Of a stretch of 64,000 nt of DNA, positions 33,173 through 59,852 are shown one piece after another. The translations under genes and the position numbers were made by a program. Position 1 is the first letter of the stretch. Each line of letters begins with the position of its first letter. Below the pieces are notes generated by a model that had not been told where the DNA came from, did no database searches, and saw only the letters and a program-made list of their open reading frames with translations. This DNA comes from Bacilli bacterium (GTDB lineage Bacteria; Bacillota_I; Bacilli_A; RFN20; CAG-826). The stretch covers positions 1,853 through 65,852 of the forward strand of contig JAKSHZ010000005.1 in assembly GCA_024399115.1 (NCBI GenBank), in the 5' to 3' direction.

Positions 33173-33173
33173 A

Positions 33174-33200
33174 AAACTCGATTGAATCGAGTTTTATTTT
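33174..33200. terminator. bidirectional rho-independent terminator
   Basis: AAAAAACTCGATTgaATCGAGTTTTATTTT. Confidence 0.6.
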
Positions 33201-34324
33201 ACTGGACTTAATTGAGAGAACTTAATGCTTTCTCTTTGATGAATTGCTACTAATTGAGCGTAATATAAGTTTCTCATGCTGATATATTGAGCCATTTGAT
33301 CTTCACTTACTCTCTTAGAGAATAAAGAAGTGAAGACTTTTTCTAATCTAAAGAAACTTTCATATAAGCATAAGAATGTTAAGTAATAGAAGAATTGTTT
33401 TCTAGAATAAATTAACAATGGGGTGCTATGAATAACTTCGCTTGATAATTCATATCTTTGGTTATAAGCTTCAAGGCCAGCCAATTTTTGAAGACCATCT
33501 CTGAAGTTTAATTTGAAGTTCTCGTCTTCCTTAGTTCCTGGGATTCCATACATCCAACCATATTCGATATATTTCTTAATATCTTTTGACTTCAAGTTAT
33601 AACCTTTCATCTCTTCTTTCATTTTATAGAAGATTTGATCTTGCTTTTCTTTATCTTCAATTGAATTATTGAAAGCTAAACCATATTGCATGTGTTTTAG
33701 ATAGTTATTCATTAATTCATCACCATATTTATCTAAAAGAATTAATGTACATTCACATTCGTGAAGAGTACGCCAAGAAGCAAAGGCTTCTGTTTCATAA
33801 CCTTCAACTAATAAATTAAGGATGCAACGAGAGATACTAAGTGATTTATTAAGCAAATCTACGATTAAAGTAGAACGTGGGTCATTCTTTCTATAGGAAT
33901 TAATGATGTTTAACATGAAATTGATGTAAATATCTAAGCTACTTGCAGGTGGTAAGAATTTATTAGTCATCTTTCCTTGGTCATGATTAAACATTGATAA
34001 AGAAATGTATTTATCAGCAACTACACCAGCGATTTGATTCATTACTTCTTCGTTTTTAATTCTGCTGTAGTTATTTGGATCATTATCGATTGAATATAAA
34101 ATTTCTCCAGCTGTATAAAGAATAATTTGTCTTTGATCGATGTCTTTACTAAGAATGTTTTCATGAGATGAATTAAGCATCTCAATGCCTTCGTTAGCTA
34201 AAAGATAAATCTCATAACAAAATTCATTATCAAAAAATTCAGGTAATCCTAAATATGATAAACCTGCCATAAAAGTATCTTTGGATAATGGTTTGCTTAA
34301 ATTATTCAACTTCTCGTACCTCAC
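33194..34324 (-). CDS. hypothetical protein, last gene of the addB-addA operon
   Basis: 376-aa uninterrupted ORF in AT-rich DNA, overlapping the addA stop by 23 nt. No recognisable motif. Start uncertain: GTG at 34324 or ATG at 34270, and neither has an SD. Confidence 0.55.
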   Translation of the reverse strand: MRYEKLNNLSKPLSKDTFMAGLSYLGLPEFFDNEFCYEIYLLANEGIEMLNSSHENILSKDIDQRQIILYTAGEILYSIDNDPNNYSRIKNEEVMNQIAGVVADKYISLSMFNHDQGKMTNKFLPPASSLDIYINFMLNIINSYRKNDPRSTLIVDLLNKSLSISRCILNLLVEGYETEAFASWRTLHECECTLILLDKYGDELMNNYLKHMQYGLAFNNSIEDKEKQDQIFYKMKEEMKGYNLKSKDIKKYIEYGWMYGIPGTKEDENFKLNFRDGLQKLAGLEAYNQRYELSSEVIHSTPLLIYSRKQFFYYLTFLCLYESFFRLEKVFTSLFSKRVSEDQMAQYISMRNLYYAQLVAIHQRESIKFSQLSPVK

Positions 34325-37310
34325 CAGTTATAGCGCTAACTAAATATTTTTTAATAGGTAATGTAATTATTTTTTTAACATAATCAGCGTAAATATTCAA
34401 CTGTTCATCATAATGAACATCTGAAATATTCTTCAATTTGAAGTCGATAATATCTACTTCATCATCTTTTAAAATAAGACAGTCGATTATACCCGTAACA
34501 TTATTTATCTCATCGTAGAACTTATATTCATGTAAAATCTTAGCGTCTAAAACATCTTTAAAGACATATGATGAAACAACATTATTAACGAATCTCTTCA
34601 TTAATGGGTCATTTATGTAGGATAAGTTATTTGTTTCAAAATCATATAGTTCTAATGCATAGTGAAGCTTAGTACCAAAGTCAAGTGCACCATCATCAGC
34701 GTCGATTGTTTTTTGCTTACTTGCCTTCTTTTTTACAATCTCTTTTGCCTCAATATTTATAGACTTAATTTCGATGTCTTGTTTTTCTTTTTTATCACTA
34801 GAAGAAATTAACTTTTCATCAGTAATTTCATAGTCCGCAATATATTTTCTATACTTAATAGAACTTATGAAAGAAATGAAACTATTTGCCTTAGTAATAT
34901 CAAAACATGTCTTCTCTAATTTCTTAGTATTAGCAAGCATGACAATCTTTTCTCTAGGACGAGTTAATGCGACATAGAAAAGTCTAAGTTTTTCTTCAAA
35001 ATCCTCGCTAACATCTCTATCTTTAATTAAATGCAAAATCAAAGAATCATATGATGTTCTTCCTACAACCGGGAAAGTAACACCGTATGTTTGATCCGCA
35101 ATAAATGATGATGTTTGAAGGGTTCTATTGAATTTTACATCTAAAAATGGGAAATATACGATTGGGTATTCCAATCCTTTGGACTTGTGAATGTTAATTA
35201 AAGTAACTGCATTTTCAGCATTTGAATTGTCTGAGAAGGATAATTCTACATCTGAAGTTAAGTGGTCAAAGAAATCGTACATATCTTTAATGCCATACCC
35301 TAACGAATCCATATTTGAAGCAAATCCAAGGAAGACATCGCACTTATGAGATCCAGACGAGCAATCACCTAAAGAAGGTATCTTTGAATAGATATCAAAT
35401 TCTTCATAAAGTGCGTAAAGAATTTCGTTTAAAGAAGAATCAAAATGAACAGAAACAACATTCTTAATTTTCTTAGAAATTTCTAATTCAGAAAGGGTAG
35501 ATAATTTGATATTTCTATAGATGTTTCTATCACTATCTCTTACTAAGAAAGAGCGTGCAATTGAACAGTATGCATGTTTAAATTCATTATCGTATTCTCC
35601 ATATTTGCATTTATAGAATAACTTAATTAAATTCTTTGTAACGTAGGTTATTTCAGTACTGCTTAATGATTCGTCTTGAATTGCGTTAATTGGAATATTC
35701 TTTGATGAGAAATATTTCTTAATATCATCAAACTTAGTCTTACGATCAATGATAATTGCAAAGTCTTTAAATGTACAAGGTCTGAATTCTTTCTTATCAA
35801 CGACTTTATATCCACTATTAATCTTTCTAATAATGTCACTTGTGATAATGGCCATTTCTTTATCAAAAGCTTTTTCGCCTTCTTCTAAAGTATATGTTGC
35901 TAAATCTACATTATAATTAGCACCTTCTTGGATATTAGAAAGATAGCCTTTATTACCAAACTTAAAGCTATGTCCATTGTTATAGTTAATAATGTTATTT
36001 TCTCTAGTCATGAGTTGACCAAAAATATCGTTGATCGCAACAACGATTTCTTCTCTAGAACGGAAAGATTGATTTAAATCAATTTCCTCTCCGCCTTCAC
36101 CAGCTTTGTAATTGTTAAACTTATCATTAAAAATGTTACAGTTTGCATTTCTAAATCTATAAATTGATTGCTTAACATCGCCGACCATGTATAAGTTATT
36201 CCTACTTAATTTAGTAATTACTTCTTCTTGAACATCAGATGTATCTTGATATTCATCTACTAAAATATAGTCAAATAATTCGCTTACTTCTTTGCATACA
36301 CTGGCATTTCTAACTAATTTAATTGCAAATTTTGCAATATCAGAGAATGAGAAAGAATTATGTTCCTTTTGGAATTTTACTAATTCTTCATCTACTTCTT
36401 TTGCGATGCTAACTAATAAAAGAACATATTTCTTATAGATATCGAAGTTCGATTTGATATATTCTGATGAACCATAATCAGATTCACAAAGGCTATTGAT
36501 GCTCTTCTTAATGTAATCTCTTAATTCTGAACCTGCAGACCTTTTATATTTAGGTTTACCTTGAATGAATAAATTACGTAACTCATCATAATTCTTTGCA
36601 GCAAGGTATGTATCGATATATCCTTCATATTCCTCTGCTACTTCAGTTTGCTCTAAGTCATTACATAAATCCTTTAATTTAAGGAGTGTGTAGATGTTAT
36701 TTTTATATTCATACTCGATTAGATTATCGATAAAACTATCATGTAAATAATTAGCACTGAATGACTTATAGAATTCCTCTTTATCTAATTGTAAATTTGC
36801 TAAGTTAATAATTTGTTTAGTTAATTCCCTTAAAGTTTCATCATTTTTGAAACTGAATCTTATTATCATTTCTTCGAAAACTGGATCTTTAACACTATAG
36901 TAGTTGGTAAAAACTTTATCTATAATGCTGTCTTCTTCGATTTGTAAAATGCAATGTTCAATTACGTTAATCGATGGAGATAGGTTTAAAACAGTCGAAT
37001 ATTTCTTAACTAAAAATAAACAGAAAGCATCAAAAGTCTCAATATGTGAGTTTTCGATATCTGGAGCCAGGTGAGCCAACTCAGAATCTTCTAAAATTTT
37101 ATCTCTAACACGCGATTTCATCTCCATTGCAGCAGCGTTAGTGAAGGTTAAAACTAAGAAGCGAGTGATGTCTGCTCCTTTTTTAACTAATCTATAGATC
37201 CTTTCACTTAAAACAGCAGTTTTGCCACTACCTGCACCAGCGGAAACGAGGATGTTATGACCCACATTATCAATAGCTAGCTTTTGCTCATCTGACCAAT
37301 CAATTGCCAT
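34302..37310 (-). CDS. addA: ATP-dependent helicase/nuclease subunit A (AddA/RexA)
   Basis: UvrD-like motifs (SAGAGSGKT; VDEYQDT) plus a C-terminal PD-(D/E)xK nuclease motif (IDCLILKDDEVDIIDFK). Start re-picked to the ATG at 37310 (MAIDW), which has GGAGG 9 nt upstream and lies 5 nt after the addB TGA. Confidence 0.85.
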   Translation of the reverse strand: MAIDWSDEQKLAIDNVGHNILVSAGAGSGKTAVLSERIYRLVKKGADITRFLVLTFTNAAAMEMKSRVRDKILEDSELAHLAPDIENSHIETFDAFCLFLVKKYSTVLNLSPSINVIEHCILQIEEDSIIDKVFTNYYSVKDPVFEEMIIRFSFKNDETLRELTKQIINLANLQLDKEEFYKSFSANYLHDSFIDNLIEYEYKNNIYTLLKLKDLCNDLEQTEVAEEYEGYIDTYLAAKNYDELRNLFIQGKPKYKRSAGSELRDYIKKSINSLCESDYGSSEYIKSNFDIYKKYVLLLVSIAKEVDEELVKFQKEHNSFSFSDIAKFAIKLVRNASVCKEVSELFDYILVDEYQDTSDVQEEVITKLSRNNLYMVGDVKQSIYRFRNANCNIFNDKFNNYKAGEGGEEIDLNQSFRSREEIVVAINDIFGQLMTRENNIINYNNGHSFKFGNKGYLSNIQEGANYNVDLATYTLEEGEKAFDKEMAIITSDIIRKINSGYKVVDKKEFRPCTFKDFAIIIDRKTKFDDIKKYFSSKNIPINAIQDESLSSTEITYVTKNLIKLFYKCKYGEYDNEFKHAYCSIARSFLVRDSDRNIYRNIKLSTLSELEISKKIKNVVSVHFDSSLNEILYALYEEFDIYSKIPSLGDCSSGSHKCDVFLGFASNMDSLGYGIKDMYDFFDHLTSDVELSFSDNSNAENAVTLINIHKSKGLEYPIVYFPFLDVKFNRTLQTSSFIADQTYGVTFPVVGRTSYDSLILHLIKDRDVSEDFEEKLRLFYVALTRPREKIVMLANTKKLEKTCFDITKANSFISFISSIKYRKYIADYEITDEKLISSSDKKEKQDIEIKSINIEAKEIVKKKASKQKTIDADDGALDFGTKLHYALELYDFETNNLSYINDPLMKRFVNNVVSSYVFKDVLDAKILHEYKFYDEINNVTGIIDCLILKDDEVDIIDFKLKNISDVHYDEQLNIYADYVKKIITLPIKKYLVSAITGEVREVE

Positions 37311-39603
37311 TAGACTCATCCTCCTCTTCTTTCTTACCGCGTTTTTGATAGTCGCGTACAAAACAAATATCTCTATGCTCGCAATATTTGCATGGATCAT
37401 TAGCATCTACAAACAAAGGAGCGATTTCAAATTCGTTATTTCTAATTTTTCTATCAACTTCTAAATATTTATCTAAGACAATGTCCTGCATTTGTTTCAT
37501 TTCTTCATCGCCAACAATGTAGCTATTGTTCTTAAATTTGCCACCTTTTTGGCTTAAACCGCTTATGAATAGGGACTTACCATTAATAATTGAAGAATCG
37601 ATTTTTGACACATATTGCAAATCTGCAACTGTAACACCATTGAGTTTTAGATAACTATCGATGAGTTCATCTTCACCTTTTTCTAGTGTAAAACTTCTAT
37701 TTATTACGTTATTAATATATAAGCCTGTTATGTGATAATCTTTAAATTCTTTAGATGTAGAGAAAAGATATGCATAAGTAGGAAGTTGCATTGAAAGTCC
37801 ATATTCTAATTGGCTCTTTTTAAAACCTTCTTTGCCAGTTTTATAATCTACTAAGATGGCATCTGATCCATCTAAAATCATCGCCTTATCAATCTTTCCT
37901 TCTAATAAAGTATTTGGTTTTATATATGTATGTAAATTCAATTCTGTTTTGATTTCAGGCTTTTCTGCAAATTTTGTGTAGTGTAAAATTGCAGCATTAC
38001 TTGCGTGTCTAATATCTTCTTTTAATTTATCTACAAAAAGTTCCTCATCAGGTTCCCACTTTTGTTCGCTTCTAGCTTTCTCAAACGCTTCTTCAAAGTT
38101 AAAATCGGGATCGTATTGATGTTCGAAAACATAATGGGCAACAGTTCCAAATTTAGTATTGAAATTGTCCTCAAAAGTAGAGATTTTAAGAACGCTATTT
38201 AGATAATATGCAAAAGGACATTCGTAGTACGTCTTAATACTTGTATAGGAAAACTTAAGAAAATCAGTCTCAGAGATTGCTTCTGCATTAGTATAGCTAT
38301 TATCGTAATCTCTATAACTAAAATCTAATTGTGAGTCTAAAGACTCCATGCATTTTGAGTATTGTAAGAAATATAATTCATTGTCTTTATCTAATCCTAA
38401 TCGATAGCTTCCATATTTCTTTGAATAAATGGTATCAGGTAAATCCTTAACTTCGACTTCGATAATGCCTAATGATTTCACAAAAGGAGAAGGGAAATAT
38501 CTTTCGTTTATAGATGCAGATGATCTAGAAAGATAAAATTTGTTGTTTGAAAGAAGGAATGCTTTAGAAATAGAATCTTCAATTCTACATTCTTCTAAGG
38601 AAGTTAATACTCCAAGCTCTCTCTTTTCTGCATCAGAAACATACTCTACATCTTTGAATGATTTTGGGAAAATGTTTTGCGCAAAGCAAGGAATAAAAAT
38701 ATGCTTATTCTCAACAAAGATAGGGCCTGATACAACGTTTACTGCGTTTTCATAGCGAGTTCTAGCAATCTTTCTTGTTTTTAAATAAGAACTTACATAG
38801 TCGTACTTTTTCTCAAAAGGAAGTTCGATTGAGCAAACATCTACTAACAATTCAAGAATGTCTTCCCCAATAAAAACATTAGGATCCTTAAGAAACTCAA
38901 AGGCAAGTTCAAAAGATTCTGTAATCTTAGCAATACTTAAGAATTCAGCTACTGATTCTTGGGAATAAATCGTAACGTCATTTGGAAGATTTACTTTATA
39001 ACCGAACGAATCATAAAAGCGTTTTATGTAGAAGAGTGCGTTCTCATTCTTGGTATATATGTACACATCTTCAGGCGAAACGCCGCTATCAAGTAATTTT
39101 GCAATCTCATTAAGCATGTAAAAAACTTCATCTTCAATTAGAGAAAATTTCTTAATTACTAATTCATTATTTCCTTTTGAAAATGAGATAAATCTATGTG
39201 GTATCTCAAATTTATTAAGTAAGGTTATAAGTTCTTTATCAGTTTTGTCATAACCATAGATTTCTATTTCTTTATTTTTAATAAATTGATCAAAGAATTC
39301 ATCTTTGTCGATTAATTTTTCCTTTTCTAGTTCCGCTTTAAGATTATAAAGATTAATGTTCTTTTCTCTTTGACATCCAACACTAGTTCTTGGAATATAT
39401 GGAAGAATTTTTAATAAGTTGTCATATTTAAAATCTTTTTTAGAATAAAGATAATATGTTCCGACATCCGTTACTCGTCCGTAAAATTTTTCTAAAAGTT
39501 CTTCTTTAGTTAATAATTTTGGGTTAGCAAAAATATCATCTTTTCTACAATAAGAAAGGATGTTTTTATGCATTTGAGATGGAGCTAAAATTATCTTTTC
39601 CAT
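37300..39603 (-). CDS. addB: ATP-dependent helicase/nuclease subunit B (AddB/RexB), compact
   Basis: C-terminal nuclease region with VDYKTGK and the Cys cluster CKYCEHRDICF. Located upstream of and coupled to addA. Start set to the ATG at 39603; the track start is a TTG. Confidence 0.75.
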   Translation of the reverse strand: MEKIILAPSQMHKNILSYCRKDDIFANPKLLTKEELLEKFYGRVTDVGTYYLYSKKDFKYDNLLKILPYIPRTSVGCQREKNINLYNLKAELEKEKLIDKDEFFDQFIKNKEIEIYGYDKTDKELITLLNKFEIPHRFISFSKGNNELVIKKFSLIEDEVFYMLNEIAKLLDSGVSPEDVYIYTKNENALFYIKRFYDSFGYKVNLPNDVTIYSQESVAEFLSIAKITESFELAFEFLKDPNVFIGEDILELLVDVCSIELPFEKKYDYVSSYLKTRKIARTRYENAVNVVSGPIFVENKHIFIPCFAQNIFPKSFKDVEYVSDAEKRELGVLTSLEECRIEDSISKAFLLSNNKFYLSRSSASINERYFPSPFVKSLGIIEVEVKDLPDTIYSKKYGSYRLGLDKDNELYFLQYSKCMESLDSQLDFSYRDYDNSYTNAEAISETDFLKFSYTSIKTYYECPFAYYLNSVLKISTFEDNFNTKFGTVAHYVFEHQYDPDFNFEEAFEKARSEQKWEPDEELFVDKLKEDIRHASNAAILHYTKFAEKPEIKTELNLHTYIKPNTLLEGKIDKAMILDGSDAILVDYKTGKEGFKKSQLEYGLSMQLPTYAYLFSTSKEFKDYHITGLYINNVINRSFTLEKGEDELIDSYLKLNGVTVADLQYVSKIDSSIINGKSLFISGLSQKGGKFKNNSYIVGDEEMKQMQDIVLDKYLEVDRKIRNNEFEIAPLFVDANDPCKYCEHRDICFVRDYQKRGKKEEEDESNGN

Positions 39604-39663
39604 ACAATAATTATAGCTCAATATTCGTATTTTTTCAAATATGGTTACTAACCATATTTGTAA

Positions 39664-47199: not shown

Positions 47200-47273
47200 G
47201 CAGGTGTAGTTCAGTGGTAGAACACCAGCCTTCCAAGCTGGTTATGCGGGTCCGATTCCCGTCACCTGCTCCA
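47200..47273 (+). tRNA. tRNA-Gly (anticodon UCC)
   Basis: Cloverleaf is GCAGGTG / GTTC-AGTGGTA-GAAC / CCAGC-CTTCCAA-GCTGG / T-arm / CACCTGC-T-CCA, with CCA encoded. Confidence 0.9.
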
Positions 47274-49862: not shown

Positions 49863-49954
49863 GGATATTATTTTAGAAGCAATTATGCTTATTTACAAAT
49901 TAAATATATATTGTTATATTTATTAAAGTTAAGGCTACGAAGGAAACAAGTAGA

Positions 49955-50170
49955 TTAATTGATTCTATCTAGAGAGCGTCCGGTTGGTGAAAGGACAACA
50001 GATAAATTAATTGAATACATTCTGGAGCTGCTACCTGAAACTAAGTAGGGATAGACGGGTTTGCCCGATATAGCTAGTTGTCAATAGACACATTAAGGAA
50101 TTTCTTGTGAGAGAAGTTCAAATTGAGGTGGTACCACGTTAATTCGTCCTCTATTAGAGGATTTTTTTAT
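49955..50170 (+). promoter_or_regulatory. T-box riboswitch leader (Tyr specifier UAC) controlling tyrS
   Basis: Stem I base AGAGAG...GTGAAAGG. UAC present at 50016-18 and 50032-34. Conserved T-box AATTGAGGTGGTACCACG at 50121-50138. Terminator TCCTCT-att-AGAGGA plus T7 at 50147-50168, immediately upstream of the tyrS SD. Confidence 0.8.
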
Positions 50171-59776: not shown

Positions 59777-59852
59777 TGGTGGACCTGAAGAGGCTCGAAC
59801 TCTCCACCTCTTCCATGCCATGGAAGCGCTCTCCCAGATGAGCTACAGGCCC
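59777..59852 (-). tRNA. tRNA-Ala (anticodon GGC)
   Basis: Reverse complement folds as GGGCCTG / GCTC-ATCTGGGA-GAGC / CTTCC-ATGGCAT-GGAAG / GAGAG-TTCGAGC-CTCTT / CAGGTCC-A-CCA. The G3:U70 alanine identity pair is present. Confidence 0.85.

Follow-up and report, generated by a model that had tools for sequence, protein, structure and literature searches.

The Locus and Its Genes

The window, by which the whole analysed stretch of 64,000 nucleotides is meant, carries on its minus strand an addB-like gene, an addA-like gene and, in third place, a gene whose product matches the DUF5677 family. A promoter-like site stands before addB in the gap that follows glpK, and a terminator-like hairpin lies behind the third gene. 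The features of the locus are as follows, with the grounds for each given in brackets.

39610..39660, minus strand: palindrome (39636-39660) and promoter-like site upstream of addB (consensus scan, sequence, relatives)
37300..39603, minus strand: short addB-like gene, 767 aa, with a PD-(D/E)XK domain and a C-terminal Cys cluster, from ATG 39603 to TGA 37302-37300 (PDDEXK_1, TIGR02773, relatives)
34302..37310, minus strand: addA-like gene (UvrD-type helicase and C-terminal PD-(D/E)XK), from ATG 37310 to TAA 34304-34302 (Pfam, TIGR02785, relatives)
34319..34325, minus strand: SD-like GGTGAGG within the last addA codons (sequence, conservation in addA-linked relatives)
33194..34309, minus strand: DUF5677-family coding sequence, 371 aa, from TTG 34309-34307 to TAA 33196-33194 (open reading frame, Pfam PF18928, relatives, dN/dS)
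33173..33195, no strand assigned: bidirectional terminator-like hairpin with A-run and T-run flanks (terminator scan, folding)

The two large genes encode short forms of AddA and AddB. The addA-like frame is listed with 1034 aa (34302..37406); the SD GAGGAGG at 37326-37320 and the relatives make ATG 37310 the likely start, which shortens the product to 1002 aa. This protein matches the Pfam UvrD-helicase family (E=8e-53) and TIGR02785 (addA_Gpos, E=3e-112, under the curated cutoff of the model), and the match of its C-terminal part to PD-(D/E)XK nucleases is weak. The addB-like frame is listed with 773 aa (37300..39621). Its product matches PDDEXK_1 (E=6e-24) and, with its C-terminal part only, TIGR02773 (addB_Gpos, E=3e-18), and an N-terminal helicase-like domain was detected by neither Pfam nor NCBIfam. 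The scores of both proteins lie far under the equivalog cutoffs of NCBIfam. This short AddA/AddB pair is found clade-wide and in the outgroup metagenome loci L097-L109. Elsewhere in the window, and unrelated to this locus, there are a T-box leader at 49928-50154 on the plus strand (115.8 bits), a tRNA-Gly(tcc) at 47200-47273 on the plus strand and a tRNA-Ala(ggc) at 59777-59852 on the minus strand.

The Start Codon of the Third Gene

The listing of open reading frames for the window contains a minus-strand frame of 376 aa (33194..34324), in agreement with the preliminary description of this DNA. Its start had been given there as either GTG 34324 or ATG 34270. Comparison with 80 species-level relatives points to neither of these codons and favours TTG 34309, with a product of 371 aa. 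Several relatives have a stop codon in frame between the equivalent of the GTG and the next start, which is at the position of the TTG. The conserved N-terminal peptide LSKPxxKExF is encoded 5' of ATG 34270, the codon at which the GenBank call begins (358 aa, 13 residues short). In most of the 42 relatives in which the gene follows addA, a TTG or ATG start precedes the last nucleotide of the addA stop codon by 7 nt, so that the start and the stop overlap by 8 nt in the form NTGAnTAA, and a GGGGAGG/GGGAGG box is located 8-10 nt 5' of the start, inside the end of addA. It is the in-frame stops, the conserved peptide upstream of the ATG and this conserved layout of SD and overlap that place the start at TTG 34309.

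Two further claims depend on the choice of the start. An overlap of 23 nt with the addA stop had been reported, and it would be correct if GTG 34324 were used; with TTG 34309, the overlap amounts to 8 nt. The gene had also been said to lack an SD, and yet GGTGAGG (34325-34319) stands 9 nt upstream of the TTG. The Glu codon at the position of the SD is GAG in all junctions listed, in a genome of 31% GC. Unusual frames were seen at three loci. The DUF5677 frame of L071 (9794-10864) does not open before the position equivalent to residue 89, at a distance of 182 nt from addA; a truncated N-terminus, a frameshift or a fault of the assembly could account for this. At L081 and L082 (10001-11224), the frame extends about 160 nt past the usual C-terminus.

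Family Membership and Conservation

The preliminary description had found no calcineurin-like motifs in the protein and no other motif that could be recognised. The Pfam scan bears out the first part, as a calcineurin-like or SbcD match is absent from it, and corrects the second. Residues 154-305 match PF18928 (DUF5677) over profile positions 4-155 of 166, with 50.5 bits (gathering score 27.1; E=3e-13). Nothing besides DUF5677 was found in Pfam at E<=1, and a scan of NCBIfam gave no meaningful match. DUF5677 is likewise the sole Pfam match in 20 of 20 diverse full-length homologues. A GenBank entry (P0001), 100% identical over 358 aa, bears the name "DUF5677 domain-containing protein [Bacilli bacterium]". 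In a profile-profile comparison by hhalign with 17 aligned generic DUF5677 proteins, the probability was 98.6% (E=1.3e-15, 176 columns), and the motifs WRTLHE, YxxH, YGW and SxxxH were aligned with each other. Judged by these sequence matches, the protein is a member of the catalogued DUF5677 family. A search of the literature on DUF5677 and PF18928 found no paper that gives a function.

The motifs G(F/Y)xxxAxxxWRTLHE, YxxH, YGW and Y..(A/S)SxxxH are conserved family-wide. In the subfamily of the window's protein, further residues are invariant, namely HECEC, KSKDIKKYIEYGW and FKLNFRDGL. The product has 1260 homologues at E<=1e-3, and 143 columns are invariant among 16 sequences at 60-85% identity. 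Twelve close pairs have dN/dS values of 0.02-0.06, which indicates strong purifying selection. The mean pairwise identity is 0.55-0.58 for the DUF5677 protein, 0.59 for the M24 peptidase encoded in the same block, 0.43 for AddA and 0.35 for AddB. The frame is a genuine, strongly conserved gene.

Predicted Structure and Possible Biochemistry

The product is predicted to be a cytosolic all-alpha protein of 371 aa. Its AF2 model contains 17 helices and 0 strands (mean pLDDT 78, pTM 0.61). A Foldseek search with this model against the PDB and BFVD returned nothing at E<1e-3, and no relative turned up in the PDB in sequence searches, whether the query was the single protein or a profile of 20 members.

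The family-wide conserved R, H and E of WRTLHE, the Y..H pair, YGW and S...H are predicted to fall on successive helices of the bundle, as a candidate catalytic or ligand-binding pocket. With low confidence, this set of Arg, His, Glu, Tyr and Ser residues suggests a putative active or binding site that is possibly metal-dependent. The genes found beside members of the family (a DNA repair nuclease, an RNA methyltransferase, and phage DNA-modification, HNH and restriction genes) hint weakly at a substrate related to nucleic acids.

Two known types of site were considered and rejected. The segment RWRTLH of generic members could be read as the Rx4-6H motif of HEPN proteins; the window's subfamily has S, T or L instead of the first Arg, so that the conserved spacing is R-x-x-H within WRTLHE, and HEPN Pfam families matched neither the product nor 20 homologues. 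The segment SSEVIH could be read as an ExxH di-metal site; many homologues, however, have Lys in place of its Glu, and conserved ExxH pairs are absent.

The Probable addB-addA-DUF5677 Transcription Unit

addB and addA overlap by 11 nt, addA and the DUF5677 gene by 8 nt, and both times an SD lies within the upstream gene. These overlaps with embedded SDs, together with the promoter-like site and the terminator, make addB-addA-DUF5677 a plausible operon with the DUF5677 gene as its last member. The gene had been described as the third cistron of an addB-addA operon, and the common strand, the two overlaps, the flanking signals and the arrangement in 42 relatives agree with this description. Transcription would begin at the promoter (39638-39610), pass through addB, addA and the DUF5677 gene and end at the terminator (33173-33195). 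Translation of the DUF5677 gene would be coupled to that of addA via the 8-nt overlap and the SD embedded in the final addA codons.

The palindrome at 39636-39660, between glpK and addB, has an 11-bp stem. Its 3' arm forms the -35 element TTGAAA (39638-39633), and the -10 element TATAAT (39615-39610) stands 6 nt before addB ATG 39603; the consensus scan counted 11 of 12 matches for this site. The hairpin is conserved as CAAATAGGnnnn..nnnnCCTATTTG, with the -35 element of a TTGAnn-17-TATAAT promoter contained in its 3' arm. About 20 of the 33 addBA-bearing relatives have the succession of hairpin, T-run, TATAAT and a start 6-9 nt further on, and the inner stem shows compensatory changes among the addBA-bearing relatives. 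The loci with the hairpin include L006, L007, L040, L047, L050, L052, L053, L060 and L061, and also L064-L066, L068, L071, L074, L077 and L080. The site at 39638-39610 is likely to be the promoter of the unit. Since addB starts only 6-9 nt past the -10 element, its mRNA is possibly leaderless in the window and in the relatives. The hairpin is followed by a T-run in most relatives, where it resembles a terminator, and by an A-run in the window.

At the other end of the unit, the hairpin at 33173-33195 separates the converging DUF5677 and EamA-type transporter genes, and the final two bases of the DUF5677 stop codon are part of it. A stretch of 66 nt around it folds with -10.8 kcal/mol (z = -4.0). 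The hairpin with its A-run and T-run thus matches the bidirectional terminator that had been noted behind the frame.

Synteny in Relatives and Loss of addBA

The scan, with one genome per species, gave 80 loci, all of them from uncultured rumen or gut MAGs labelled as Bacilli, Bacillales or Erysipelotrichaceae. The window's proteins were mapped onto these 80 species loci and onto ten metagenome loci. A conserved block was found that consists of the genes for an M24 peptidase, glpK, addB and addA where present, the DUF5677 gene and a converging gene for a PRK-family kinase. Directly 5' of the DUF5677 gene there is addA in 42 of 80 determinable loci and glpK without addBA in the other 38; six further loci were assigned to neither state. 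The addB-addA-DUF5677 arrangement persists down to 36-40% AddA identity. The placement beside addA, whose conservation the preliminary description had proposed to check, is therefore kept in about half of the relatives. That description had also named a combination which would speak against its reading, namely a function unrelated to DNA metabolism and absence of the linkage everywhere; this combination was not encountered. An early impression that the linkage is absent in relatives was overturned by the sampling of closer and of much more distant ones.

The loci without addBA are compact. The DUF5677 gene begins at most 36 nt past the glpK stop or overlaps it by a few nucleotides (e.g., ATGA), and the inter-operon hairpin and the promoter are missing as well. 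The pairwise identities of all genes of the block co-vary (r = 0.64-0.88), which argues that addBA and the rest of the block were inherited vertically. Neighbour-joining trees were built from three marker sets (the DUF5677 protein, three flanking proteins, and all four); Fitch parsimony needs 9-10 state changes on them, and a model that permits losses only needs 10-12, with the reservation that the trees carry no support values and that midpoint rooting leaves the state at the root ambiguous. Re-insertion of co-diverging addBA genes with an identical 8-nt junction is implausible, and the distribution thus implies about ten independent clean deletions of addBA at this locus. Most simply, the addB-addA-DUF5677 layout would be ancestral in this clade of rumen and gut Bacilli, which counts 80 or more species-level members.

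The slot around addBA is variable. At L014 (5402-9902), one of the six loci assigned to neither state, an HTH regulator and uncharacterised proteins of 312 and 948 aa replace addBA. At L076 (75-3497), another of the six, a 1140-aa LRR protein of the BspA type is encoded 5' of the DUF5677 gene. The gap between glpK and addB holds an antisense gene at L011 (3356-4276), in whose translation a Fic-type HPFxDGNGR motif was read by eye, and a lipoprotein-like gene at L028 (3432-4562).

Homologues and addBA Operons Outside the Clade

A metagenome scan with AddA yielded only outgroup operons, whose AddA identity is 32-37% and does not exceed 37% over the full length. Among the loci of this set with enough flanking sequence, which number at least 11, none has a DUF5677 gene downstream of its short addBA. 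In one of these operons, addBA is followed by a gene for an HI0933-like flavoprotein, and in another by hybrid histidine kinases.

Distant full-length DUF5677 homologues share 20-30% identity with the window's protein. One of them lies at the end of a prophage, in an accessory region with the order Nmad3, DUF5677, HNH and type I RM. Others belong to a housekeeping operon with rpsO, a nitroreductase, an HI0933-like gene, DUF5677 and a U5-methyltransferase. No constant partner of generic DUF5677 genes was found among the plasmid and gene-island singletons examined. The HI0933-like gene is a recurrent neighbour; it abuts addA in the outgroup operon L105 (9073-10251) and lies immediately 5' of the distant DUF5677 homologues P0178 and P0273 (L093 6862-9155; L095 6269-8583). 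This recurrence may be due to chance, or it may go back to an older arrangement addA, HI0933, DUF5677.

The Role of the DUF5677 Protein

The gene is probably of a housekeeping type. We favour the reading that its product is inherited vertically and acts independently, and that it shares a transcript with addBA rather than being a subunit of AddAB. This reading rests on the adjacent addBA genes having been lost about ten times, with the DUF5677 gene kept each time under unchanged selection. The residues R185, H188, E189, E191, Y208, H211, G256, S295 and H299 (GTG numbering) are invariant with or without addBA. The N-terminal region and the core diverge in the same relation to each other in the addA-linked and in the addBA-less group, and dN/dS lies at 0.02-0.06 in both, so that no relaxed or altered constraint after the loss of addBA was detectable by any of these three measures. 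The common transcript with addBA would have historical and genome-compaction reasons, and after each removal of addBA, the gene would have become joined to the glpK operon, with purifying selection acting on it as before. The independence from AddAB is established as to adjacency and co-transcription, and at this locus only.

It had been proposed that the protein is a new accessory factor of AddAB. As an obligate role, this finds no support, since 38 relatives keep the gene under equal constraint and have no adjacent addBA. The series of about ten addBA deletions, which amounts to a natural experiment, argues in the same direction. Since many relatives keep the gene unchanged after the local loss of addBA, it is probably not a dedicated partner of the nuclease.

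A true accessory component of the short-form AddAB of this clade, made in a fixed ratio with AddA by translational coupling, is an unlikely alternative. Such a protein could modulate the nuclease or helicase activity or replace functions of the missing N-terminal domain of AddB, and copies of addAB at another place, or a second role, would account for its retention after the local loss of addBA. The gene order with its 8-nt overlap and its selected SD is found in 42 species and at low AddA identity, and such tight coupling is expected of the subunits of a complex; however, the coupling to glpK is equally tight where addBA is gone. With 767 aa, AddB is unusually short, and its match to the addB models is confined to the C-terminal nuclease part, but the outgroup operons that encode the same short AddB have no DUF5677 gene. 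The divergences of the DUF5677 protein and of AddA and AddB correlate strongly (r = 0.85-0.88). Equally high correlations are seen for the M24 peptidase and glpK, so that the correlation reflects shared descent and not co-evolution. In addition, addAB never adjoins the distant homologues, and the constraint and the key residues remain the same in the 38 of 80 species without adjacent addBA.

The protein might also be an ancestral third partner of a so far unrecognised short-form AddAB of this Bacilli order, whose AddB is without the N-terminal helicase-like domain, and might combine a regulatory or DNA-end-recognition function with a second, AddAB-independent and indispensable activity. We regard this as improbable; if true, it would offer the first functional foothold for the entire DUF5677 family.

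Just as doubtful is the idea of a defence, abortive-infection or mobile-element-derived gene that became fixed beside AddAB, a nuclease that degrades phage DNA. Several traits of the wider family would fit it. Generic DUF5677 genes occur as singletons scattered over phyla and in islands of hypothetical genes, and one generic member is plasmid-borne, with transposase and reverse-transcriptase genes as neighbours. The distant homologue at the prophage end has Nmad3 on one side and HNH/type I RM genes on the other, and there is a match to phrog_27456 (E=2.6e-10), a PHROG family of unknown function. According to a preprint, the DUF5677 domain is enriched next to serine recombinases (10.1101/2025.10.07.681051). 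However, the single DUF5677 ORF that was tested there in E. faecalis is not named among the five protective ORFs (10.1101/2025.10.07.681051), and the prophage-borne homologue has no match by tblastn in 50,697 phage records. The HMMs of defence proteins in PADLOC-DB v2 gave 0 families at E<=1. The window's subfamily is neither patchy nor island-borne, as the place of the gene between M24 peptidase and glpK on one side and PRK on the other is fixed in 80 of 80 loci and the gene co-diverges with its flanks. A fixed, vertically inherited place and a conservation equal to that of a housekeeping peptidase are unlike defence genes, and the earlier suggestion of an inserted defence-type gene finds no support here.

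That the frame is a chance opening or a decaying remnant without a functional protein can practically be dismissed, for although its start is non-ATG and annotators differ on it (358 aa in GenBank), the reading is already refuted by conservation, that is, by the number of homologues, the invariant columns, the low dN/dS and the conserved position of the start and the SD.

Comparison with Known Systems

The most useful concrete outputs of the analysis are the corrected start codon, the anatomy of the operon and the natural deletion series, and their practical value is modest. With regard to its own family, whose other members are scattered and island-borne, the window's protein is a rare case, being vertically inherited and strongly constrained. 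It shares a homologous core of about 170 residues with generic DUF5677 proteins such as Slin_6990 of Spirosoma linguale (ADB42933.1), and both are all-alpha proteins with a single domain. The generic proteins are 400-430 aa long, whereas the subfamily has about 370 aa and an N-terminal helical region of its own. The generic genes occur singly, scattered over many phyla and carried on plasmids or within gene islands, in contrast to the single-copy, vertically inherited genes with fixed synteny that are described here.

Two known systems resemble the locus in their layout. In Bacillus subtilis, the genes are arranged as addB-addA-sbcD-sbcC, so that there, too, addA is followed within its transcription unit by another gene of the same strand. 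SbcD and SbcC of Bacillus are a calcineurin-like phosphoesterase and an SMC-like ATPase, respectively, whereas the window's protein matches neither of them and is an all-helical DUF5677 protein. RecD is the third subunit of RecBCD, and the likeness consists in a third cistron that is co-transcribed with those of two large helicase-nuclease subunits. Unlike RecD, the DUF5677 protein is devoid of P-loop and helicase motifs, and its gene is kept where the adjacent genes for the large subunits have been deleted.
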